Shown one piece after another: positions 1,043 to 27,413 of a stretch of DNA of 27,413 nucleotides (positions within the stretch are counted from its first letter, which is position 1; each line of letters starts with the position of its first letter). The stretch covers positions 1 to 27,413 of the IMG/VR virus record IMGVR_UViG_3300030207_001508. One strand, 5' to 3'. The stretch comes from a virus. Taxonomy: Duplodnaviria > Caudoviricetes. The notes under the pieces are model-generated. The model did no database searches and was not told the origin of the DNA. It worked only from the letters and a program-made list of their open reading frames with translations. The position numbers and the translations under genes are program-made.

Positions 1043-3175
1043 ATGGCTGAAACAACTAAAGTTGAAAAAAGAGCAGAACCTGATGCTTTAAAAACAGGAG
1101 ATTTTGTGTCTTGGAATGCTAGTGGAGGTCGAGCTAGAGGTAAGATTACAAAGATTGTAAGAGATGGACAGATTGATGTTCCTAGCAGTTCTTTTGTTAT
1201 TAACGGAACAGCAGATGACCCTGCTGCTTTAATTCAAATATATAGAGATGGCGAATCCACCGATATATATGCAGGTCATCGATTTTCGGCACTTACAAAA
1301 ATTGCTGATATTAGATCGATTGAGAATGGAGATAAATTTGAGCGTAAAGAGGTTACGGACTTCAAAAATGTAAAAGCAAGAACATTTGAGTTTCCATTTT
1401 CATCGGAATATCCAGTCAAGCGTTATTTCGGTAACGAAATATTAAGCCATGAAGAAGGAGCAGCAGATTTAGCACGACTTAATGATGGCGGTGCGGTTTT
1501 GTTTAATCACGATATGAACAAACCTATTGGTGTGGTGGAGTCAGCTCGAATTGACCCAGAAACCAAACGTGGTTATGCCAAAATTCGTTTCTCTCGCAAT
1601 AAGTTTGCATCTGAAATATTACAAGATGTCCAAGATGGAATATTAAGAGGTATTTCTTTTGGATATCAGATAAATGATATGGAGGAAGCAGAAGATGGCA
1701 TGAGAGCCACCAACTGGTCAGTTCATGAACTATCAGTTGTAACTGTTCCAGCTGATCCAACTATTGGTTTTGGTAGAAGTTTGATAGAACCCTCTCAAGG
1801 TAATAGTATTAGTATGGAACAAGAATCTCCTATCGAGGAGATTAATTCTGCGGTTGAACCCGCATCAACAACAGTCCGAAACATGGAAGAATCAACTAAA
1901 GAAACTGCGGTTGATACGGCTCCAGCCGTTGAAATCGACATCAAAGCCGAAGTACAACGTGCTATTGATGAAAACAATGCTCGTACAGCATCAATCACTT
2001 CGTTATGTCGTGAGTTTGGAGAGTATGGAGCAGAACAGCTTGCTGATTCACTTATAAAGGGAAATAAAACTCCCGAAGAAGCTAAAGCAGCTATCCTCGA
2101 TCTTGTTAAAAACAAGGCAGAGGCAGTTAATACCCCAATACGTTCTACTGACATGAGTACTAATGAAGTTGGCTTAGACCAAAAAGAAATTAAGCGTTTC
2201 TCTTTCTTAAGAGCATTAAACGCATTAGCAAACCCAACAGATCGTCAAGCTCAAGAAGCAGCAGCTTTTGAGAGAGAGGTATCTGACGCAGCTTCTAAGA
2301 AGTATGAGAAACCTGCAAATGGAATTTTAGTTCCTAACGAAGTTTTAAAAAGAGACTTGAATGTAGGTACAGCAACAGCTGGTGGTAACTTAGTTCCAAC
2401 AGAATTACTTGCAGGTTCATTCATCGACATTCTTAGAAAGAGAATGGCTGTGATGGCAACTAACCCAACAATGCTTACTGGATTGTCAGGAAACGTATCT
2501 ATCCCCCGGATGACCTCAACCAGCACTGCTTATTTCGTTGGCGAATCGGGTTCTCCAACAGAAAGTCAGCAAGCTTTTGATCAAGTCAACATGACACCTA
2601 AGACAGTTGGTGCATTTGTTGATTACTCAAGAAGATTACTTCTTCAATCTTCAATTGATGTTGAGTCAATGATCAGAGATGATATTGCAAAGGTTATTGC
2701 TACTAAGTTAGATAACGCAGCAATCTATGGTTCTGGTAGTTCTAACGAGCCTCTTGGAATTAAAGATACAACAGGTGTAGGAACACAAACAATCAGTACA
2801 TTTGGTACTTTTGCTGAGTACATCGGAATGGAGACAGACGTTGCAGCAGCTAACGCTGATGTAGCTAATATGTTCTACCTAATTAATGCTTCTGCTAGAG
2901 GTGCTTTAAAGTCAACAGAAAAAGCTTCAAACACAGCACAGTTCGTGTTTGAGAACAATGAAATTAATGGCTATCCAGCTATTGTTTCTAATCAGCTTGC
3001 AAACAACGATGTTCTCTTTGGAGACTTCTCACAGTTTGTGATTGGTATGTGGTCTGGTTTAGATCTAACTGTAGATCCATATGCAAATGCAACAGCAGGT
3101 AGCGTAAGAATCATTGCGTTACAGGATGTTGACTTTGCTGTTAAGCAACCAGGTGCGTTCTGCTTCGGAACATAA
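1043..3175 (+). CDS. Fused Tudor/SH3-like domain, HK97-type prohead protease and HK97-fold major capsid protein
   Basis: LKTGDFVSWNASGGRARGKI (Tudor-like); protease motifs LFNHD, GISFGY, ELSVVTVPAD; capsid motifs GGNLVPTELLAGSFIDILR, AYFVGE, GSGSSNEPLGI, LFGDFS; frame is open upstream to 872. Confidence 0.93.
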   Translation: MAETTKVEKRAEPDALKTGDFVSWNASGGRARGKITKIVRDGQIDVPSSSFVINGTADDPAALIQIYRDGESTDIYAGHRFSALTKIADIRSIENGDKFERKEVTDFKNVKARTFEFPFSSEYPVKRYFGNEILSHEEGAADLARLNDGGAVLFNHDMNKPIGVVESARIDPETKRGYAKIRFSRNKFASEILQDVQDGILRGISFGYQINDMEEAEDGMRATNWSVHELSVVTVPADPTIGFGRSLIEPSQGNSISMEQESPIEEINSAVEPASTTVRNMEESTKETAVDTAPAVEIDIKAEVQRAIDENNARTASITSLCREFGEYGAEQLADSLIKGNKTPEEAKAAILDLVKNKAEAVNTPIRSTDMSTNEVGLDQKEIKRFSFLRALNALANPTDRQAQEAAAFEREVSDAASKKYEKPANGILVPNEVLKRDLNVGTATAGGNLVPTELLAGSFIDILRKRMAVMATNPTMLTGLSGNVSIPRMTSTSTAYFVGESGSPTESQQAFDQVNMTPKTVGAFVDYSRRLLLQSSIDVESMIRDDIAKVIATKLDNAAIYGSGSSNEPLGIKDTTGVGTQTISTFGTFAEYIGMETDVAAANADVANMFYLINASARGALKSTEKASNTAQFVFENNEINGYPAIVSNQLANNDVLFGDFSQFVIGMWSGLDLTVDPYANATAGSVRIIALQDVDFAVKQPGAFCFGT

Positions 3176-6460: not shown

Positions 6461-8669
6461 AAAGCTAGAAAAGTTTACTATTGAAATAGATTTAAAAGGT
6501 TTAGAAGATCTTACTGGATTAACACGTTCACTAAAACAATTAGACAAAGCATTTAAACCCTTAAATCAAACAGGAATAAAAAGTCTTAATAATAATATAA
6601 AAACAACAATTGCACTTGTACCAAAAAGTGTAAATCAATTTAAGCAGAAAGAAAGAACATTAAAAGCACTTAGGAATGAAGTAAAGATTGGTGGTGCTGA
6701 ATTTAAAAAACTTGGAGCAGCAATTGATGCAAATGCTGCAAAATTAAAATCATTTACACAAATCCAACCAAAAGGAATGTTTGGAAGACTCAAGGCTTCT
6801 AAATTTGGAGTTGGAGGTAGAGCAGCACTTGGTGCAATGGCTGGTTCTATGGCAGGTCAATTTGGAGCTACAGGTCAAATGGCTCTGACAGGTGCTGCTT
6901 TAGGAGGCCCAGCAGGTGCTGCTGCAGGTGCTGTTATTGGTGGAACAATAGATACTGTTAAAGCAGCTAGTGCTGCTGCACAATATTCTGCACAAATACA
7001 AAAGTTAGAAGTTGCATTGAAAGGTGTAACTAAAACACAACGAGAATTTGCAAAGGCACAAAAAATTATATCTGATACATCGAGAAGATTAAATGTTCCA
7101 TTAGGAGCAGCCACCAAACAATTTACTACTTTATCTGCATCTGTTATTGGTGCTGGAGGAAATGTAGATGATGCAGAAAAAGTATTTAAAGGTGTATCTG
7201 AAGCTATTAAAGCAACAGGTGGAGATGCAGAGGATGTACAATCTGCAATCCGTGCGATGTCGCAAATTTTTGGTAAAGGTAAGGTGTCGGCTGAAGAATT
7301 ACAAGGTCAGCTCGGAGAAAGATTACCAGGAGCCGTGGTTAAATTTGCTACAGCAACAGGACGAACACTACCTGAGTTACAGAAAGACTTGAGAGATGGA
7401 ACTGTAGGTCTAAATGACGTTATGAAGTTTGTTGTCAAGCTTAGTGAAGATCATGCTGACGCTGCTGAGAAGATGGCAAATTCTCAAGCAGATGCAGGTC
7501 AGAAAATGACAGTTGCATTAAGAGAATTACAAAAAGAATTTGGAGATTTATTTGTTCCTGTAGGTGCAATGATTCAGAGATTTATTGCAAGTTTGGCAAA
7601 TATGTTGACAGCAATAGTTAAATTTTTCAAAGGTGTTAAGAAGGAAAATAACGAAATGGCTGCACAAGAATTTGCATTGGAACAGGTTGGAGGTAGAGAT
7701 GCTTTGACCAAGACTGGCAAAAGGAGACTTGCAAAAACAGGAGTTTTTGATGAAAGTATGCTTCAATCTGATAAACGATCTCAATTTAGTTTTATTAAAG
7801 ACCAGCGTTTAGATTTCTTAAACAAAGAAGACGAAGATACACCAAGTAAATTTGATGATCCTGTATCAGAAGATAAATTAAATGAAAAACTTGCAAAACG
7901 TCAGTTACAACTAGGATTAATAACTCAAGAAAAATTTGATCAATTAGCACTTGATAGAGAAGCACAATTAATTTTTGATGAAATGTCAGAAATACAAGGA
8001 GAAAAATTTAAACTTACACTTGATGAGATTAAACAAAAACTAAAAGACAATAAACAAGAAACATTTAATTTTAAAGAAGAATTAAAAAAAGTTGCAGAAT
8101 CTGCAATGGATTTAAAATCGCAGATTGGGGAACTTGCAGTAAATGCTGTAAATAAACTTGCGGATGGTTTTGTCGAACTTGCAATGACAGGTAAAGCAAG
8201 TTTTGGAGAGTTAGCAAGATCAATATTAGCTGATTTACAAAGGATGATATTAAAAGCATTATTTTTTAAAGCGTTATTTGCATTAGCACCGGGCTTAAAA
8301 ACTTTCTTAGGTTTTGAAAAAGGTGGTGTTGTAGAAAGTGCTAAAGGTAATGTATTCGCAGAAAATAAAGTTGTTCCGTATGCGTCAGGGGGTGTAATTG
8401 ATAAGCCAGTAATTTTCCCAATGGCACGAGGAATGGGGTTAGCTGGGGAAGCTGGACCAGAGGCCATCATGCCATTGAAGAGAGGCAAAGGAGGAAGATT
8501 AGGAGTTGAATCTTCTGGTGGAGTTGGTAATGTTGTGGTAAATGTAGATGCATCAGGTTCTAGTGTTGAGGGCGATGATGCTCAAGCATCAGCACTTGGA
8601 AAGATGTTAGGGGCTGCTGTACAAGCCGAACTTGTTAAAGCAAAACGACCAGGAGGCATACTAGCTTAA
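6450..8669 (+). CDS. Tail tape measure protein
   Basis: AMSQIFGKGKVSAEELQGQLGERLPGA core; C-terminal AGEAGPEAIMPLKRG and KRPGGILA of lambda-type TMPs; helical, Ala/Gly-rich segments. Confidence 0.93.
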   Translation: MAAKKLEKFTIEIDLKGLEDLTGLTRSLKQLDKAFKPLNQTGIKSLNNNIKTTIALVPKSVNQFKQKERTLKALRNEVKIGGAEFKKLGAAIDANAAKLKSFTQIQPKGMFGRLKASKFGVGGRAALGAMAGSMAGQFGATGQMALTGAALGGPAGAAAGAVIGGTIDTVKAASAAAQYSAQIQKLEVALKGVTKTQREFAKAQKIISDTSRRLNVPLGAATKQFTTLSASVIGAGGNVDDAEKVFKGVSEAIKATGGDAEDVQSAIRAMSQIFGKGKVSAEELQGQLGERLPGAVVKFATATGRTLPELQKDLRDGTVGLNDVMKFVVKLSEDHADAAEKMANSQADAGQKMTVALRELQKEFGDLFVPVGAMIQRFIASLANMLTAIVKFFKGVKKENNEMAAQEFALEQVGGRDALTKTGKRRLAKTGVFDESMLQSDKRSQFSFIKDQRLDFLNKEDEDTPSKFDDPVSEDKLNEKLAKRQLQLGLITQEKFDQLALDREAQLIFDEMSEIQGEKFKLTLDEIKQKLKDNKQETFNFKEELKKVAESAMDLKSQIGELAVNAVNKLADGFVELAMTGKASFGELARSILADLQRMILKALFFKALFALAPGLKTFLGFEKGGVVESAKGNVFAENKVVPYASGGVIDKPVIFPMARGMGLAGEAGPEAIMPLKRGKGGRLGVESSGGVGNVVVNVDASGSSVEGDDAQASALGKMLGAAVQAELVKAKRPGGILA

Positions 8670-16486: not shown

Positions 16487-17938
16487 ATGGCTAACACAAT
16501 TCGTATAAAAAGATCTACAGGATCATCAGCACCAGGTAGTTTGGCAAATGCTGAACTAGCAAGTGCTGAAGGTAATGAGATTATTTATTATGGTAAGGGT
16601 TCCGGGGGTGCTGGAGGTTCTGCAACAAGTATCATAAAAGTTGGTGGTAAGGGTGCTTTTTGGGATAAAGATACAGTAAGAGCAGCCAACTCTGTATTAG
16701 CTGGGCCTGGAAGTGGTAGTGATGCAGCACCCGATTTTAGGGCATTAGTAGCTGCTGATATTCCATCTGTAGCACATACTAAAATATCAGATTTTGATGC
16801 AGGTGTAAGAACAAATAGATTAGATCAAATGGCTGCACCAACAGCTAGTGTAAGTCTTAACTCTCAAACAATTACAAATTTAGCTGATCCAGTAAATACA
16901 CAGGATGCTGCAACTCGTGGTTTTGTTGAGGCTACCTCACAAGGACTTGATGTTAAAGATTCATGCGTAGCTGCAACGACAGGAAATATTACGATTGCTA
17001 CAGCTCTTAATAATGGAGATACACTTGATGGAGTAACACTAGCAGATGGAAATAGAGTATTAGTTAAAGATCAAAGTACAGCATCTCAAAATGGAATATA
17101 TGTAGTTGGATCAAGTCCAGCTAGGGCAGCGGATTTAGCTGCTGGTTCTGATGCAGCAGGTATGTTTACCTTTATTGAACAAGGTACTGTAAATGCTGAT
17201 AACGGCTTTGTTTGTACGAGTAATAAAGGATCAGCGGTCACAGGGACGAATAATCTTACTTACGCTCAATTCTCAGGAGCTGGGCAGATCACGACAGCCG
17301 ATGGATTACAAAAATCTGGTAATACAATTTCGGTTGATTTAAAATCAAATGGTGGACTTGTTATTGAATCTACTGAAATTGCTGTTGATCTTTCTGCTAG
17401 TTCTATAACAGGAACTTTAGCAATTTCTGATGGTGGTACAGGAGCAACCTCTGCTAGTGCAGCAAGAACTGCATTAGGAGTTGCTATAGGTTCTGATGTA
17501 CAAGCTTTTGATGCACAATTAGCTGACGTTGCTGGATTAACTCCTTCTGATAGTGGATTTATTGTTGGGAATGGATCTAATTTTGTCATAGAAAGTGGGG
17601 CTACAGCTCGTGCTTCTCTTGGTCTTACTATTGGAAGTCAAGTTCAAGCTTATGACGCTGACCTTGATAATTTATCGGGTTGTCAATCAGGTGCTTCTTC
17701 TGCTTTAGCTGCATTAACACAAGCTGAAGTTCAGATCTTAGATGGAGCAACTGTTACAACTGCTGAGTTAAATATTATAGATGGAGATACATCGGCAACA
17801 TCAACAACACTTGCTACTGCTGATCGCATGGTAATTAATGATAATGGAACAATGGTTCAAGTTGCGTTATCTGATCTTGTAACTTTTCTTGAAAATGGAA
17901 GTGTATCAGGTTTTGATATAGATGGTGGATCGTATTGA
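16487..17938 (+). CDS. Tail fibre 2 with Mtd-N-like N-terminal trimerisation domain
   Basis: MANTIRIKRS...LANAELA; ITNLADPVNTQDAATRGFV; RVLVKDQSTASQNGIY; two AR(T/A)xLG...VQA(F/Y)DA repeats; ends IDGGSY. Confidence 0.78.
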   Translation: MANTIRIKRSTGSSAPGSLANAELASAEGNEIIYYGKGSGGAGGSATSIIKVGGKGAFWDKDTVRAANSVLAGPGSGSDAAPDFRALVAADIPSVAHTKISDFDAGVRTNRLDQMAAPTASVSLNSQTITNLADPVNTQDAATRGFVEATSQGLDVKDSCVAATTGNITIATALNNGDTLDGVTLADGNRVLVKDQSTASQNGIYVVGSSPARAADLAAGSDAAGMFTFIEQGTVNADNGFVCTSNKGSAVTGTNNLTYAQFSGAGQITTADGLQKSGNTISVDLKSNGGLVIESTEIAVDLSASSITGTLAISDGGTGATSASAARTALGVAIGSDVQAFDAQLADVAGLTPSDSGFIVGNGSNFVIESGATARASLGLTIGSQVQAYDADLDNLSGCQSGASSALAALTQAEVQILDGATVTTAELNIIDGDTSATSTTLATADRMVINDNGTMVQVALSDLVTFLENGSVSGFDIDGGSY

Positions 17939-20393: not shown

Positions 20394-20843
20394 ATGAAAC
20401 TAACAATAATAGCTGAAGATAAATCAGTAACAAAAGATGGTACTTGCGTTCCCGATATAGATATGTCATCTTGGTTGCCTACAGATGTATGGGCTGTGAA
20501 TTGGGATAGTGAAACCTCAACAGGAGAAATTGAATATAATGACGGAAAACCAAATGTAGCTATAAATGAAATTGGTATTTATTCTCAAGCCGTTACAGAT
20601 TTTGATAAAGCTTTACCTGATGCAGAAGAAACAAAGTTAAGAGGTTTTGTTCTTACTCCTATAAATTCACTAAGAGTTTTAAGAGATAATAAGTTAGCTG
20701 AAAGTGATTGGACACAGTTTACAGATTCTCCTCTTGCAGATGCTAAAAAAACAGAATGGGCAACATATCGCCAAAAATTAAGAGATTTACCAGCAACCGA
20801 AACTGATTATGAAAACCCAACTTGGCCTACAGAGCCAACTTAA
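20394..20843 (+). CDS. Tail fibre assembly chaperone
   Basis: GGAGG RBS; LRVLRDNKLAESDWTQ...WATYRQKLRDLP...WPTEP. Confidence 0.85.
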   Translation: MKLTIIAEDKSVTKDGTCVPDIDMSSWLPTDVWAVNWDSETSTGEIEYNDGKPNVAINEIGIYSQAVTDFDKALPDAEETKLRGFVLTPINSLRVLRDNKLAESDWTQFTDSPLADAKKTEWATYRQKLRDLPATETDYENPTWPTEPT

Positions 20844-21513
20844 AGATACTTCAATAGTTAACGACCCTTTTATCTGGTATAAAGATAATGTTTTGTCTGA
20901 AAGTTTTTGTATAGATACTATAGATAAATTTGAAAAATCTGATTCTCCATTTAAACTGCAAGGTCGTGCTGGATATGCTGTTAATACACAAATAAAAGAA
21001 AGTTTAGATTTATTTATAAGTGATAAAGAAGAGTGGAAATATGAAGATAGTATTTTAGAACAAACTTTATATCAAGGTGTTCAAGAATATATACAATCAT
21101 TAAATAAAAAGTTAAAATTACCTCTTTTTAATCCTAAATTGTCAAATTTTGGTATTTCTATTTTTGTAAATGATGGAGACCAGCATCATGTTTTTGATAG
21201 CGGTTATCAAATACAAAAAACCTCGGTAGGTAAGGGATATTCTTGGCATGATGATTTTTGTACTAAGGGAATGAATAATGAAGATGGTCCAAGATATTTA
21301 ACTTTTATCTGGTATTTAAATACTGTAGATGAAGGTTGGACTCAGTTTTACAATGGTAATCAAGTCGCACCAAAACAAGGCAGATTACTTTTATTTCCTT
21401 CTTCTTGGACTTATATTCATCAAGGCTATCCCCCAAAACAAACTAAATATATTATTACTGGGTGGATTCAACAAAATATAGCTACAAATGGTCAAACCAT
21501 AAATTATGTTTAG
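20809..21513 (+). CDS. 2OG-Fe(II) oxygenase, prolyl-4-hydroxylase-like (start uncertain)
   Basis: YSWHDD (HxD), RYLTFIWYLN, PKQGRLLLFP, WTYIHQG (distal His), KYIITGW. Confidence 0.9.
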   Translation: MKTQLGLQSQLKDTSIVNDPFIWYKDNVLSESFCIDTIDKFEKSDSPFKLQGRAGYAVNTQIKESLDLFISDKEEWKYEDSILEQTLYQGVQEYIQSLNKKLKLPLFNPKLSNFGISIFVNDGDQHHVFDSGYQIQKTSVGKGYSWHDDFCTKGMNNEDGPRYLTFIWYLNTVDEGWTQFYNGNQVAPKQGRLLLFPSSWTYIHQGYPPKQTKYIITGWIQQNIATNGQTINYV

Positions 21514-23446: not shown

Positions 23447-23480
23447 TACCCATAGCTTTAACAATTGCTTCTTTAATCAT
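23319..23480 (-). CDS. Small single-TM membrane protein (53 aa), not in ORF track
   Basis: MIKEAIVKAMGTMSLVVLFLILSLSPLYLIAGLLVRSASTSSPQTEYRPQSLK; long uncharged hydrophobic span; antisense overlap with 23213-23446. Confidence 0.55.
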   Translation of the reverse strand: MIKEAIVKAMGTMSLVVLFLILSLSPLYLIAGLLVRSASTSSPQTEYRPQSLK

Positions 23481-23718
23481 GTATCAGAAAATCTCTAATA
23501 TTTTGAGTATAGCTTCATTTGTACTCATAGTCAGCACTTTAATTTCAGCATTTTTTGGTTACAAATATGTAACCTCAGAACAATTTAAAACAAAAATTAT
23601 GAATGAAGTTCTTGGAAATGTTCAAGGACTTATGCCAAAAGTTTTAGATAATGCAATTCCAGACGTTACAGGTCCATCTTTACCAATACCTCCAGAAGCT
23701 AAAAAACTTGGAATCTAG
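23479..23718 (+). CDS. Small membrane protein with N-terminal TM, amphipathic helix and Pro-rich tail
   Basis: ILSIASFVLIVSTLISAFFGY TM; IPDVTGPSLPIPP. Confidence 0.75.
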   Translation: MYQKISNILSIASFVLIVSTLISAFFGYKYVTSEQFKTKIMNEVLGNVQGLMPKVLDNAIPDVTGPSLPIPPEAKKLGI

Positions 23719-23879
23719 TGAATTGTTATTGGTGTAATACTGAATTAATACCAAGTGGAGATATAGACATTGATGAGTCTATGCCAACTTATCCTGAGTT
23801 TTCAGTAATGACTAATTTATTGTGTCCTAAATGTTATTCGCAAGTAGAAGTATTAAAAAAAAGAGATGCTTTTGATTGA
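23718..23879 (+). CDS. Zinc-ribbon mini-protein (53 aa), not in ORF track
   Basis: GTG start sharing a base with upstream TAG; CYWC...CPKC; TGA overlaps next ATG. Confidence 0.7.
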   Translation: MNCYWCNTELIPSGDIDIDESMPTYPEFSVMTNLLCPKCYSQVEVLKKRDAFD

Positions 23880-24514
23880 TGGAGATACCTAGTATAAATA
23901 TTGCAGAAATATATATACCTGAGATATATATTCCAGAACCTTATACACCTAATATTCCTGTTGTAAATCAGTACTTAGATATCAATACACCAGGATGCAC
24001 TTATCAACATAGAGATATCAAAAATACAGGAAATCATAATTTATTGTTAGACGATCCAAACGGAACATATACAATTTGCGATTTTTCATTTCCAAGTTTT
24101 ATTCCTCCTGTTTACAATCCTAATCAAATGACGATAGTGGAAGAACCATTACCACAAGGAGGAGATCCAGAAATACCTGAGACAGAGACACCTAAAATTC
24201 CCGAAGAAAAAAAAGAAAAAGATATGCAAGTGCCTGAGTGTCCAGGTCCTAAAGACCAGCGAGTGGGCGATTTCAGAAATTCACAAAAGCTTGAAAAAGT
24301 AGTATCGCATCGCTTATCATCGGACAAAAGAGAATGCATAACTGAATATGAAAGAGTGGAATGGAAAGAGCAGTTCATCCCATCTGCCCCTCAGTTTGTT
24401 GGGGTCTTTAGCCTTGCTTTGGTTGGGGCTTCTGCTCCAGTTGTTTTACAACTAGTACGTCCCTTAGTTAAGCAGGTTGTTTCTAAAATAACTAAATCTA
24501 AAAAAGATAAATAA
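23879..24514 (+). CDS. Pro-rich, four-Cys protein with C-terminal membrane anchor
   Basis: ATG at 23879 (TGATG); EIYIPEIYIPE repeats; Cys at GCTY, TICD, ECPG, RECI; FVGVFSLALVGASAPVVL followed by Lys-rich tail. Confidence 0.8.
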   Translation: MEIPSINIAEIYIPEIYIPEPYTPNIPVVNQYLDINTPGCTYQHRDIKNTGNHNLLLDDPNGTYTICDFSFPSFIPPVYNPNQMTIVEEPLPQGGDPEIPETETPKIPEEKKEKDMQVPECPGPKDQRVGDFRNSQKLEKVVSHRLSSDKRECITEYERVEWKEQFIPSAPQFVGVFSLALVGASAPVVLQLVRPLVKQVVSKITKSKKDK

Positions 24515-24516
24515 TT

Positions 24517-25050
24517 TTAAATAATTGTACTAGCCCAACCAGTAATAATATATTTTCTTTCATTTGGAGCTGGTACTCCTCTATGCATATGCGTCCAACC
24601 TGCTGGCCAAATATACATACTACCTGCCATAGGGAATAATGTAGTTTTTTGATGTATAAACTCAGTACCTCCTCCAATTTTTATAGTATTAAGATAAATC
24701 ATCCAAGCAAGAATTCTATTTGGCGATCCATCAGTTTCGCAATGTATATAACTGTAATATGCTTTTGGTTCATATCTCATTAAGTAAGCAACATCATCCA
24801 CATCCCAATCAGCTAAATTTGTGCTTAATAAGGGATATTTTTCCTTATATCTTGCAAAAGTCGCTAATATTTCTTCTTTTAAAATATCAGATTTATAAAT
24901 ACTAATTGGTATTTCTAAATCATCTAGTTCCATAATATTCCCAACTCCACCTTTATTTGCCATTCTTATATTTGATTCAAAAAAAGAAATAAGATTATTG
25001 CAAGTTTCAATTGATAAACAATTAGGATTGTTCATCATATAATTTTCCAT
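24517..25050 (-). CDS. 2OG-Fe(II) oxygenase, prolyl-4-hydroxylase-like
   Basis: IHCE (HxE), RILAWMIYLN, GGGTEF, WPAGWTHMHRG, KYIITGW; TAA-ATG coupling with upstream gene. Confidence 0.88.
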   Translation of the reverse strand: MENYMMNNPNCLSIETCNNLISFFESNIRMANKGGVGNIMELDDLEIPISIYKSDILKEEILATFARYKEKYPLLSTNLADWDVDDVAYLMRYEPKAYYSYIHCETDGSPNRILAWMIYLNTIKIGGGTEFIHQKTTLFPMAGSMYIWPAGWTHMHRGVPAPNERKYIITGWASTII

Positions 25051-25767
25051 TTATGGTTTTGTATCAATTTTATGAGTATGCGGTATTACTTGATTAGGCG
25101 GTATAGAGACTTGTATGCCTTCACAAGTAACTGCATATTTTCCAACAAATTGCACTCCGCTACGCACTTGCTCGCCACATATCTTGAGTCTATAAAGTTC
25201 CATTTCCATTTTTAATTTTTGCGTTAAAAGCTTTTGATTTTCTATATTTACTTCTGTGGCTTCTAAACAAAGTTTTGGTGCTTTGCCTAATGGAACGCTT
25301 ATTTGTGCAGAAATTCCATAGTTAAGGTTAAAATTATCTTTTTCAAATCTTGGTATCTCTTGGTAATATTTTATTTCTCCTGTATCTTCGTCATAGATTG
25401 GAGTACGAGTTGTATATTCTATAGGTCGGTTAAAGCTCCACGAATCTGTCATGTATGGAGTAATCGTGAGAGTAGGAGATGCACAGACAATACCTTGCGA
25501 CATCCTAAATTGTGGATGGCTAGAAGGGGTTATCATTGTGGCATTGTTATTAACTACCCCGGTACTTTGCGATTGAGGACTAGCAACAGTAGTGTTTGCA
25601 AGGGTTTTGACAGGACTTAGTAATATTGCTATTGCCCAAAGGTACTTGTAGATTCTGTAGTAGTTGAGGTTGTTATAGTTCTGTTTATTGTTGTTATTGT
25701 GTCCAAACCTGGTGCCATGACGCTTTCGACCAAGCTGAAGGAACTTCCGGGAACTGCTACCTTCCAT
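25051..25767 (-). CDS. Exported four-Cys protein with beta-hairpin and long helix (putative outer-membrane protomer); start uncertain (ATG 25767 or non-canonical ATC 25653)
   Basis: Signal-like KYLWAIAILLSPVKTLA; PTLTITPY...NYGISAQISVPLG followed by coiled coil. Confidence 0.75.
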   Translation of the reverse strand: MEGSSSRKFLQLGRKRHGTRFGHNNNNKQNYNNLNYYRIYKYLWAIAILLSPVKTLANTTVASPQSQSTGVVNNNATMITPSSHPQFRMSQGIVCASPTLTITPYMTDSWSFNRPIEYTTRTPIYDEDTGEIKYYQEIPRFEKDNFNLNYGISAQISVPLGKAPKLCLEATEVNIENQKLLTQKLKMEMELYRLKICGEQVRSGVQFVGKYAVTCEGIQVSIPPNQVIPHTHKIDTKP

Positions 25768-26066
25768 CTTGGATTTGTTGTGCCATCTATAGAAGTCCAA
25801 CTAAAATTTACTCCTCCAACAGTTTGTTCATTAACAGTTGTCTGAGTCGGATCAATGTATCCATCAATGTCTGTACTTTCAATATTATGACCCGAAACTG
25901 AGAATGTGTAACCTGTACGATATTGATGACTTGTGATCGTTTCATTTATAACTGATTCAGAAGTCGAGCTGGTCGTACTCGACCCGGAACGAAACTGGGG
26001 AACTACAGGTGTAGCAAGAGCTTTGATCGGGTATAAGAATATTAGCAGTAAACAAAGTTTAGTCAA
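25629..26066 (-). CDS. Secreted Ser/Thr-rich beta protein
   Basis: TTG start overlapping upstream stop; signal MTKLCLLLIFLYPIKALA with ALA cleavage. Confidence 0.8.
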   Translation of the reverse strand: MTKLCLLLIFLYPIKALATPVVPQFRSGSSTTSSTSESVINETITSHQYRTGYTFSVSGHNIESTDIDGYIDPTQTTVNEQTVGGVNFSWTSIDGTTNPRWKVAVPGSSFSLVESVMAPGLDTITTINRTITTSTTTESTSTFGQ

Positions 26067-26580
26067 TTTCTATGCTGACAGTTGTAGATCCAATACAGCT
26101 TGTACCACTTCCCCCTGCTGTGCAGGTATGAATTCCAGAACTTAACGAAGTAAGTGCAAGCGATCCAGCAGTACCACCTGAGATTACTGTTGTCTGTCCA
26201 CCAAGAACAGGTAGAGTTGCGATGCCAGAACTAGGTGTGATTGCAGATTGAGTACTGTCCCCGGCTTGGTAACTCTCGGAAAAACTGAAGGCCGACCCGG
26301 CTGTTGTAACAGTTTTATTTGTATTAACAACAGCTGGTACACCCGAAGATAGCGAACCAAGATTAAGTCCTCCAATAGCATTAGTAACAAGCGAATCTCC
26401 TGTTCCTGTAGATGTGGTAACATTGTTCCCACTTATGCTGTAGCTCGATGGGGCTGCATTAGTGATTACATAAGGCGAGTCAATGGAAATTTGTGCAGAC
26501 GTTACATATTTAGCTGTAATCTCGGCATAACTTGGAGTTGCTGCTGATAGTGCAAAAATAAATGGAAGTAGCTTTTTCAT
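26059..26580 (-). CDS. Secreted Ser/Thr/Gly-rich beta protein
   Basis: Signal MKKLLPFIFALSAATPSYA; C-x8-C pair near C-terminus; ATGA overlap. Confidence 0.85.
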   Translation of the reverse strand: MKKLLPFIFALSAATPSYAEITAKYVTSAQISIDSPYVITNAAPSSYSISGNNVTTSTGTGDSLVTNAIGGLNLGSLSSGVPAVVNTNKTVTTAGSAFSFSESYQAGDSTQSAITPSSGIATLPVLGGQTTVISGGTAGSLALTSLSSGIHTCTAGGSGTSCIGSTTVSIEID

Positions 26581-26942
26581 TTTTGTGGTTTAGGGTCGAT
26601 TACTTCTGCTCCCTCAATCTTGAGAGGAGTTATTACCCTTATAGTCTGTATCATACCTTCGTTTTCGGCAACTTTATCGTCTTTCTTATTACCTTTTTTA
26701 GCTTGCTCTAGCCCAAAAGAACTCAGAGCCGTAGCGAGAAGAGAAGCTGGGAACGTGATATCTTGCTTTTCTCCTGTTGTGATGCCTGGAATCTTAGGTA
26801 AGTAATTACTTGTAACGAGCAAACCCGACCAAAAAACTACGAGAAGTCGGACAGCTATTGAGATGTACTCAAATTGTTCTTCTTTATCGCTTACTTTTTC
26901 TTTTATTTTTTGCAAAAGATTTTTAGGTTTCTTTACTGGCAT
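26577..26942 (-). CDS. Two-TM membrane protein heading the minus-strand operon
   Basis: ISIAVRLLVVFWSGLLVTSNYL and ITFPASLLATALSSFGL with charged termini. Confidence 0.8.
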   Translation of the reverse strand: MPVKKPKNLLQKIKEKVSDKEEQFEYISIAVRLLVVFWSGLLVTSNYLPKIPGITTGEKQDITFPASLLATALSSFGLEQAKKGNKKDDKVAENEGMIQTIRVITPLKIEGAEVIDPKPQK

Positions 26943-26985: not shown

Positions 26986-27216
26986 GTGGTTGAAGTAATA
27001 GCAGCAGTTGGGGGAGCAATGATGACAGCTTGTTTTGTATCTGTAGGATCAGTATCTTATCGAGGCAGACAATCAAGAGATGATCTTGTGAGAAATACAA
27101 CAGCTATAGAATTATTAACTACAAAAATAGATGATATGCATGATGACATGAAAGAAGTATTTCATCGTCTAAAAGAAGTAGAACTAGCAGTAGCAGAAAA
27201 CAAGTCAAGAAGATAA
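26986..27216 (+). CDS. N-terminal TM plus coiled-coil protein (possible holin/antiholin-like)
   Basis: GAGGA at 26973 before GTG 26986 (preferred to the 26863 start); VIAAVGGAMMTACFVSVG then heptads; TG-T-CATAAT at 26953. Confidence 0.65.
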   Translation: MVEVIAAVGGAMMTACFVSVGSVSYRGRQSRDDLVRNTTAIELLTTKIDDMHDDMKEVFHRLKEVELAVAENKSRR

Positions 27217-27302: not shown

Positions 27303-27413
27303 ATGCTAAAAATCATTGAACCTATTATTTTTGCTTTCCTAAGAGGGTCTGCATTAAAAAAACTCGCATTAGATATAATACGAGCTATGGTCAAAAAAAC
27401 TGACAATACAGTT
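27303..27413 (+). CDS. Small amphipathic protein (3' truncated)
   Basis: MLKIIEPIIFAFLRGSALKKLALDIIRAMVKKTDNTV, open to window end. Confidence 0.65.
   Translation, partial: MLKIIEPIIFAFLRGSALKKLALDIIRAMVKKTDNTV

Follow-up and report, generated by a model that had tools for sequence, protein, structure and literature searches.

A conserved envelope gene module of marine picocyanophages, with a signal peptide written in an overlapping frame, as a candidate non-canonical lysis system

The DNA considered here is a 27,413-nucleotide (nt) stretch of a caudoviricete genome (positions 1 to 27,413 of the IMG/VR virus record IMGVR_UViG_3300030207_001508; hereinafter the window). It carries, between positions 23,479 and 26,942, six genes, labeled A, B, C and D on the minus strand and F and E on the plus strand, which form a single conserved envelope module found in myo-, podo- and siphoviruses of marine picocyanobacteria. 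The module is a real and widespread, if uncharacterized, envelope unit, and we place at about 0.55 the probability of the reading that we prefer, a non-canonical lysis system, namely an endolysin-free and lipoprotein-free apparatus that would bridge both membranes of the host. As such, it is likely to be the lysis apparatus of most marine picocyanophages, predicted to operate with no lipoprotein spanin and, in the podo- and siphoviruses, likely with no phage endolysin. A separate and firmer result is that the signal peptide of D is for the most part encoded in the second frame of C. Lysis biology has a conspicuous gap at the marine cyanophages, 20 of which are reported as having no spanins (Kongari 2018, PMC6139136), and the route by which their hosts burst shapes the organic matter released from the main primary producers of the ocean. 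A four-gene minimal version of the module in the model podovirus P-SSP7 makes the question directly testable.

The window spans the portal-to-tail-fiber region of a lambda-like siphovirus, with the module at the end of the tail region; by the module genes, the closest cultured relatives are the Prochlorococcus phages MED4-117, MED4-184 and P-HS2 (B 90% and D 71% identical). A first-pass annotation made from the sequence alone had proposed that a tightly coupled minus-strand operon converges here on a plus-strand block, together specifying a trans-envelope apparatus. The layout is as it described: A (26577–26942) and B (26059–26580) meet in an ATGA overlap; B and C (25629–26066) overlap by 8 nt; C and D (25051–25767) overlap in turn; and D is joined to the gene downstream by a TAA-ATG junction (25051/25050). 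On the opposite strand lie F (23479–23718), with an N-terminal transmembrane (TM) segment, and the Pro-rich E (23879–24514), with a C-terminal one.

To assess conservation we collected loci by similarity to B or D, and the resulting co-occurrence counts hence show linkage rather than prevalence; as these loci share ancestry, the junction and ATG counts given below are likewise not independent of each other. Gene E is present in all 207 loci with enough flanking sequence and B and C occur together in 185 of 186, far more often than chance would allow, and A is found in 197 of 243; this supports the earlier grouping of envelope-targeted proteins in one cluster, which proves to be a conserved unit. 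The myoviruses S-SSM5, S-RSM4, P-TIM68 and Syn9, the T7-like podovirus S37-C6 and the siphoviruses share the order B>C>D><E<F, flanked by A on one side or the other, while S-H68 keeps B>C>D and F with no E annotation nearby. In two loci (L246, 3880–4636; L233, 2743–3492) E is co-oriented with D, and the convergent layout is thus not essential. The minimal set, in the T7-like P-SSP7, comprises E, A, C and D, whereas B and F went undetected there; its E-like gene 042 (E-value 1e-6 to the E profile) is reduced to linker, TM segment and tail. At least 455 phage records, almost all of them under cyanophage names, contain relatives of D. A search of 185,579 cellular genomes yielded 16 matches, most with the full gene order; in the 14 of these loci with testable flanks, at least one flanking open reading frame (ORF) matches cyanophage loci in 10, and half or more do so in eight. 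We read them from these matches as phage contigs and reject a cellular origin of the module. One such contig, of 188 kb in a Nonlabens isolate assembly (L247), carries the complete module; 13 of the 15 ORFs around it match cyanophage loci, and the contig is probably a cyanomyovirus genome.

The first-pass annotation had stated that similar genes cluster in T4-like cyanophages, and this proved accurate: the module is the gene cluster that Sullivan 2010 described, as hypothetical proteins, in all but S-PM2 of 16 cyanomyoviruses, for which functional clustering was suggested (PMC3037559). The correspondence is A to T4-GC 218, E to 234, D to 235, C to 236, B to 237 and F to the 'plasmid stability' gene; D matches the T4-GC 235 protein of S-SSM5 with an E-value of 6e-25, A matches T4-GC 218, and B and C align with T4-GC 237 and 236. 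The gene set and the convergent order are the same, save that T4-GC 219 is missing from the window, whereas the account of the cluster in that paper gives no envelope or lysis function (PMC3037559) and our survey extends it to a siphovirus and to podoviruses. In the literature covered, from which subscription journals are largely absent, there is neither a functional assignment for the module nor a report of the C/D overlap.

All parts of the module bear features of membrane or secreted proteins. The core gene A (DUF6450, phrog_2714/721; T4-GC 218, Syn9 gp161) codes for a small, probably inner-membrane protein of holin-like topology. The description of A as a two-TM protein stands for one clear segment, the second being weaker: our own scan counts a single segment for the window protein, but two for 23 of the 39 homologues, and the homologue PSSP7_043 is annotated with two. 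Its size, topology and position are holin-like, though it matches no holin family in PHROG or Pfam. B (phrog_564; T4-GC 237) and C (DUF6322, phrog_650; T4-GC 236; core, with a TTG start) are signal-peptide proteins with respectively 32% and 33% Ser/Thr, and are paralogues of each other (hhalign 96%, E-value 2.5e-9). The model of B is all-beta with long N- and C-terminal strands, at low confidence (predicted local distance difference test, pLDDT, 65), whereas C has Thr-rich terminal segments and its final 45–58 codons double as the leader of D. By our own heuristic (an h-region and a small residue at the cleavage site) rather than SignalP, all 58 non-redundant B homologues have signal-peptide features, as do 45 of the 55 C homologues having a start in range and every one of the 76 D homologues (out of 79) in which a site could be placed. 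Thus, the claim of three consecutive signal-peptide proteins is upheld across homologues, with the qualification that the signal of D has no ordinary start and begins inside C. The earlier statement that no lipobox is evident also extends to the families, as none of 58 B, 56 C or 76 D homologues contains the pattern.

Across the convergence point, the core gene E (phrog_570; T4-GC 234, gp164) encodes a protein with 12% Pro and one C-terminal TM segment followed by a basic tail. A hydrophobic stretch at its N-terminus is found in none of 89 homologues, and the median number of open codons upstream is three. Its net charge is +5.9 beyond the TM segment and −1.8 ahead of it; an acidic-to-neutral segment before the membrane and a basic one after it indicate an N-out/C-in orientation, from which we infer E to be an inner-membrane anchor. 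The even Cys counts of 2, 4 and 4 that had been noted are correct and belong to B, D and E, and the four are invariant in 132 D sequences and kept in 87 of 89 E homologues; the pair in B, present in only six of 58, is lineage-specific. F is a 79-residue protein with a single N-terminal TM segment (one in 97 of 98 homologues) and a short, Pro-ended tail. Its label as a 'plasmid stability protein', which derives from phrog_568 alone and has been carried into the literature (PMC9602691), is probably a mislabel: F has no Pfam family, and is TM-anchored where a soluble partition or toxin–antitoxin domain would be expected. This label, along with the starts of D, is corrected here.

The core gene D (phrog_848/1755; T4-GC 235, gp165), the mature part of which runs from 25596, is distinguished by where its signal peptide begins. 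The nearest starts are an ATG at 25767 and a TTG at 25800, respectively 139 and 172 nt within C, the TTG with a GGAGGAG 10 nt upstream; the leader from the ATG (25597–25767) has 57 residues and a net charge of +9, is mostly dual-coded with the 3' end of C, and finishes with an h-region and a cleavage site of the signal-peptidase type. At 192 of 194 distinct C/D junctions, D is read in the −1 frame relative to C, and the arrangement is also seen by eye in P-SSP7 and S-SBP1. In the junctions inspected, every second one, the hydrophobic core of D straddles the stop codon of C; no start codon stands at the beginning of the signal peptide there, save in one podovirus lineage (6 loci), where D has its own junction ATG. 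Across 51 non-redundant loci without such a junction start, the −1 frame over the last 45 codons of C contains 0 stops as against 132 expected by synonymous shuffling, and is open in all 51 loci against 2.4 expected. For comparison, the last 45 codons of B have 108 stops against 111 expected and the middle of C 170 against 226, and the +1 frame of C is not depleted. An ATG is found within the open frame in 49 of the 51 loci; in the last 60 codons of C it is present in 47 loci against 22 expected, 45–58 codons upstream, and is made by an A preceding a Trp codon of C. The leaders have a mean net charge of +6.7, and a Shine-Dalgarno-like 4-mer precedes 38 of 49, a count without a control. Judging by these frame statistics, the start of D inside C is under selection and its signal peptide, of approximately 57–70 residues, is most likely written mostly in the second frame of C. 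This result is statistically strong irrespective of what the module does.

Other ways of starting D fare poorly. A fusion of C and D through a −1 frameshift is disfavored by both the ATG enrichment and the lineages that give D its own start. A non-AUG start at the stop codon of C, where the codon is often GTA, would leave only about 12 residues, and a twin-arginine translocation signal was rejected as the S/T-R-R-x-F motif is found in one of 49 leaders. The starts of D are often annotated wrongly or late; PSSP7_045, for instance, begins downstream of its own signal peptide. As a separate observation, made by eye, A begins within the 3' end of E in the podoviruses S-SBP1 (L276, 3546–4120) and P-SSP7 (L263, 37739–38379); in S-SBP1, where the E-like gene is unannotated, the ATG of A again arises from a Trp codon in the −1 frame.

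The mature D protein is predicted to resemble an outer-membrane protomer, as the first-pass annotation had suggested for one of the products, with an amphipathic beta-hairpin and a long helix. The model (pLDDT 78; predicted template modeling score 0.47) has two 13-residue strands (42–54 and 88–100) flanking a hairpin loop, followed by a 41-residue helix. The second strand is strongly amphipathic, with alternating polar and hydrophobic positions of mean hydropathy −2.29 and +2.68, and homologues differ widely in the length of the stretch that links the two strands, as is usual for extracellular loops. A protomer with two strands would have to oligomerize to sit in a membrane. A complex prediction for mature C with mature D scored 0.00 in two runs and is not used as evidence.

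No characterized family or solved fold was matched by any module protein in PHROG, Pfam, the PDB or the fold searches. Profiles of D, B and C against PDB sequences gave nothing below an E-value of 0.07, and with Foldseek neither D nor B had a PDB match at E≤0.001. VIA-align against 48,161 chains gave a best Z of 4.3 for D, covering only the long helix, and of 2.4 for B, in weak rows; TolC, CsgG and the spanins were not among the fold-search rows listed, the rows for B come from a model of pLDDT 65, and Pfam gave no family match to curli or to aerolysin-type pore-forming proteins. All named BFVD matches at E≤0.001 are relatives that belong to cyanophages or to uncultured marine phages, and ESM Atlas returned unnamed or DUF6322 clusters and one labeled 'OMP1 protein family'. 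PHROG and Pfam scans detected no hydrolase family on any module protein, and three cyanophage endolysin probes found no match among the ORFs of 244 loci. In sum, signals are conserved, the genes co-occur and none has a confident match to a characterized family, as the idea of a trans-envelope unit had called for.

The lysis reading draws on where the module lies and on what it replaces. In P-SSP7 it is located between the tail-fiber genes and the small terminase, the interval in which S-CBP1, S-CBP2 and P60 have an endolysin. Likewise, the tail genes of S-CBS1 and KBS-S-2A, both siphoviruses, precede a pair of small membrane genes and an endolysin, and in MED4-117 the module is found there. 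Thus, the module occupies the endolysin position in both podo- and siphoviruses. Further, genes 29–51 of P-SSP7, which include the module, are expressed late (PMC7885011, citing Lindell 2007).

The presence/absence pattern points in the same direction. Among 18 whole genomes, D and C are found together in six, and these match neither the S-CBS1 endolysin nor the KBS-S-2A endolysin-domain probe. Eleven of the 12 genomes lacking D and C match an endolysin probe (nine that of S-CBS1; P60 and S-B28 that of KBS-S-2A), and a podovirus-type D probe detects nothing in these 12. S-B28, the capsid of which is 79% identical to that of P-SSP7, has an endolysin and no D or C. For 32 named T7-like cyanopodoviruses, the matches listed include D in 18, an endolysin in 11, both in none and neither in three. 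Finally, three CheckV-complete close relatives of the window together with MED4-117 and P-SSP7 give 0 of 5 for four probes, and none matches a fifth. Hence, in small genomes the module is rarely found with an endolysin. That it replaces, rather than accompanies, the endolysin in podo- and siphoviruses suggests that it might be more than a spanin substitute. Like the gene content, linkage and dual coding of the module, its position and this pattern are matters of observation; the folds and topologies of its proteins are predicted.

Taken together, we advance the following plausible course for its assembly, localization and action in lysis. At a late stage of infection, the inner-membrane trigger might be A, in a holin-like role and perhaps together with the small membrane protein encoded nearby at 27303. 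D would be exported, form two disulfides and oligomerize; each copy would contribute one amphipathic hairpin to an outer-membrane beta-barrel, and its long helix would join a coiled coil in the periplasm. The C-terminal helix of E would hold that protein N-out in the inner membrane, from where its Pro-rich spacer would reach across, and the paralogous beta proteins C and B would polymerize on D to give a periplasmic stem. The resulting bridge might draw the membranes together or puncture them in a spanin-like manner, with an outer-membrane protein in place of the lipoprotein. The buried start and the long basic leader of D might keep its amount and rate of export below those of C. The breach of the peptidoglycan is the weakest step of this scheme, and wall hydrolases of the host would be its likeliest agents.

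Several points weigh against the lysis reading. In the myoviruses the module lies among replication and photosynthesis genes, and it coexists with an endolysin-like domain in S-RIM2, S-H35, S-RIM14, DSL-LC02, S-ShM2 and possibly S-CAM7; in S-RIM2 two genes annotated as endolysins (574 and 735 residues) are beside a tail gene. Purified virions of S-SCSM1 contain a glucosaminidase (PMC9602691), by analogy with which such myovirus enzymes may serve entry. The 18-genome panel is not random, as seven of its 12 module-negative genomes were picked from an endolysin match list and two more supplied probes; S-PM2, S-N03, ACG-2014f and S-CBP2 match the S-CBS1 endolysin by its C39-like domain only. The cyanopodovirus comparison rests on the best 60 of 455 matches, 110 rows from 233 records, and 40 of 1161. 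Host lineage is a confounder too, many of the endolysin-bearing phages being infectious to estuarine CB strains. Syn5 (L262) matches neither the module nor the endolysin probes, and the module is hence not required by every endolysin-less phage. The Pfam scan missed one of two positive-control endolysins, such that an endolysin elsewhere could go unrecognized. As for the proteins themselves, none has a recognizable hydrolase fold; E is without a signal peptide, yet its 170-residue N-terminal part would need export; and the first strand of D is only mildly amphipathic (−0.81 and +0.70).

Against this backdrop, the positional and presence/absence evidence favors lysis over the other functions that such envelope proteins might have. 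One is a filament on the surface of the infected cell, or a channel for secretion, in which B and C would be the major and minor secreted beta subunits of a curli-like scheme and would pass through a pore made by D, with E, F and A as its anchors, in the service of anti-grazing, aggregation or a decoy. The Ser/Thr-rich and paralogous character of these two signal-peptide proteins, the place of B ahead of C and D, as expected of a major subunit, and the accessory outer-membrane beta-barrel gene (PF24653) found in 29 of 243 loci would all suit a filament, which we nevertheless consider unlikely, given that P-SSP7 lacks B and that such a structure leaves unaccounted for both the takeover of the endolysin position and the near-exclusion with endolysins in small genomes. 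The lysis position in podo- and siphoviruses, and the near-exclusion with endolysins there, also speak against a remodeling of the envelope for superinfection exclusion or permeability, be it by receptor masking or by a pore that feeds the infected cell. This is a quite unlikely role, even if all parts are envelope-targeted, the neighbors in myoviruses include pstS, hli, psbA and an accessory outer-membrane protein gene, and S-RIM2 combines the module with endolysin-labeled genes; the module of P-SSP7 belongs to the late class (PMC7885011), which is too late for exclusion.

A closer relative of the lysis reading holds that the module is a spanin substitute alone, disrupting the outer membrane after the action of an endolysin that the probes do not recognize. 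It would sit well with the alternative topology suggested by Kongari 2018 (PMC6139136), which E and D fit, with a C/D overlap that recalls overlapped spanin genes, with the myoviruses that have both module and endolysin, and with the endolysin missed in the Pfam control. However, a substitute should accompany endolysins, whereas all 11 endolysin-matching genomes of the 18 lack D and C, and five module-negative phages are on the spanin-less list of that study or kin to those on it (PSS2, P60, S-PM2 and Syn5 by name; PMC6139136); accordingly, we regard this restricted role as decidedly improbable. Least of all do we favor a place for these proteins in the virion, or in a mobility cassette run by a plasmid-stability protein, as hypothesized in 2010 (PMC3037559). 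This stands as very improbable despite the PHROG label of F and the tail genes that adjoin the module in sipho- and podoviruses: F is a 79-residue single-TM protein with no Pfam family, the conserved cleavable-type signals of B, C and D are unfit for virion assembly in the cytoplasm, and one module serves three tail types.

Around the core, the cluster is embellished by genes that vary between loci. The six-gene unit holds within the larger cluster that had been proposed, which also took in two passengers that the earlier account left unnamed. One, between D and E, is a 2-oxoglutarate (2OG)-Fe(II) oxygenase gene (24517–25050, minus strand; PF13640), inside the module in this window only among 244 loci; the other, between F and E in some siphovirus loci, encodes a 53-residue CxxC..CxxC protein (23718–23879, plus strand) with no PHROG or Pfam family and 20 matches across the 244 loci. 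A second 2OG-Fe(II) oxygenase gene (20809–21513, plus strand) is among the tail-fiber genes, making two in one small siphovirus. Two kinds of accessory gene are absent from the window, one for a Gly-rich membrane protein (T4-GC 219, 96 of 243 loci) and one for the outer-membrane beta-barrel (PF24653); examples of the two are at 7403–7975 and 3910–4338 in L082 and at 16855–17220 in L261. The A family occurs alone, with no C or D, in the endolysin-bearing myovirus S-N03 (DUF6450; NC_070959.1, 143441–143581; L270). Diverging from the module are two small plus-strand genes (26986–27216 and 27303–27413), each with one hydrophobic segment, which are holin candidates. By eye, the former resembles the gene that precedes the endolysin by two places in both S-CBS1 and KBS-S-2A, as well as Syn5 gp47; the latter (phrog_2738/402), of a type matched in 61 of the loci L001–L080, resembles Syn5 gp48, which occupies the position of the holin in T7. 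Elsewhere in the window, a gene at 1043–3175 (plus strand) encodes a prohead protease fused to the major capsid protein; an Hva1 Tudor-like domain (PF11160, E-value 1e-6) forms its N-terminal part. A promoter/terminator scan gave 21 hits against 15.5 ± 4.0 in shuffles, i.e., the shuffle level, and in the RNA search no RNA holder was listed.

When set beside known systems, the predicted hairpin and long helix of D look by eye like one TolC repeat, and the paralogous secreted beta subunits are reminiscent of curli (CsgG/CsgA/CsgB), yet there is no sequence match to either in Pfam or the PDB and these families are not among the fold-search rows listed. It is possible, though less likely than not, that the module typifies a new class of exit machine: a disulfide-stabilized, secreted trans-envelope conduit in which protomers of two strands each make up an outer-membrane beta-barrel, beta subunits form a polymer and a protein without a signal peptide provides the inner-membrane anchor. 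Such a machine would release the dominant ocean cyanophages with neither a phage endolysin nor a lipoprotein spanin, and have its dose set by a signal peptide in a second frame of the upstream gene. In contrast to the holin–endolysin cassette, it has no recognized peptidoglycan hydrolase. A precedent for lysis lacking a recognized endolysin is the marine double-stranded DNA phage PM2 (P17/P18), whose relatives swap these genes for ordinary endolysins (PMC1950889); two small proteins are involved there as against four to seven here, and the same source places P18 homologues in S-PM2, which is without the module. With the two-component (lambda Rz/Rz1) and unimolecular (T1 gp11) spanins (PMC6139136), the module would share an inner-membrane anchor and an outer-membrane partner with a periplasmic helix, and it shares conserved Cys residues, a gene with its signal sequence written within the preceding one, and a location at the lysis locus. 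It differs in that B, C and D have no lipobox; the overlapped gene C encodes a signal-peptide protein instead of an i-spanin; the anchor E has a C-terminal TM segment and, as against the unimolecular type, no N-terminal lipoprotein signal; there are extra secreted beta subunits; and it tends to replace the endolysin. Set against an i-spanin, in which an N-terminal TM segment goes with a periplasmic helical domain, F shows one N-terminal TM segment in 97 of 98 homologues and a short tail, and is missing from P-SSP7. As the proteins have no lipobox, the module falls outside the spanin families, even if its action may be similar to theirs. In the survey of Kongari 2018, 20 of the 91 spanin-less phages infect Prochlorococcus or Synechococcus (section 15), and it names the pairing of an N-out/C-in inner-membrane protein with an outer-membrane protein as a spanin alternative that had not been searched for (PMC6139136): this is the very topology that we infer for E and D.

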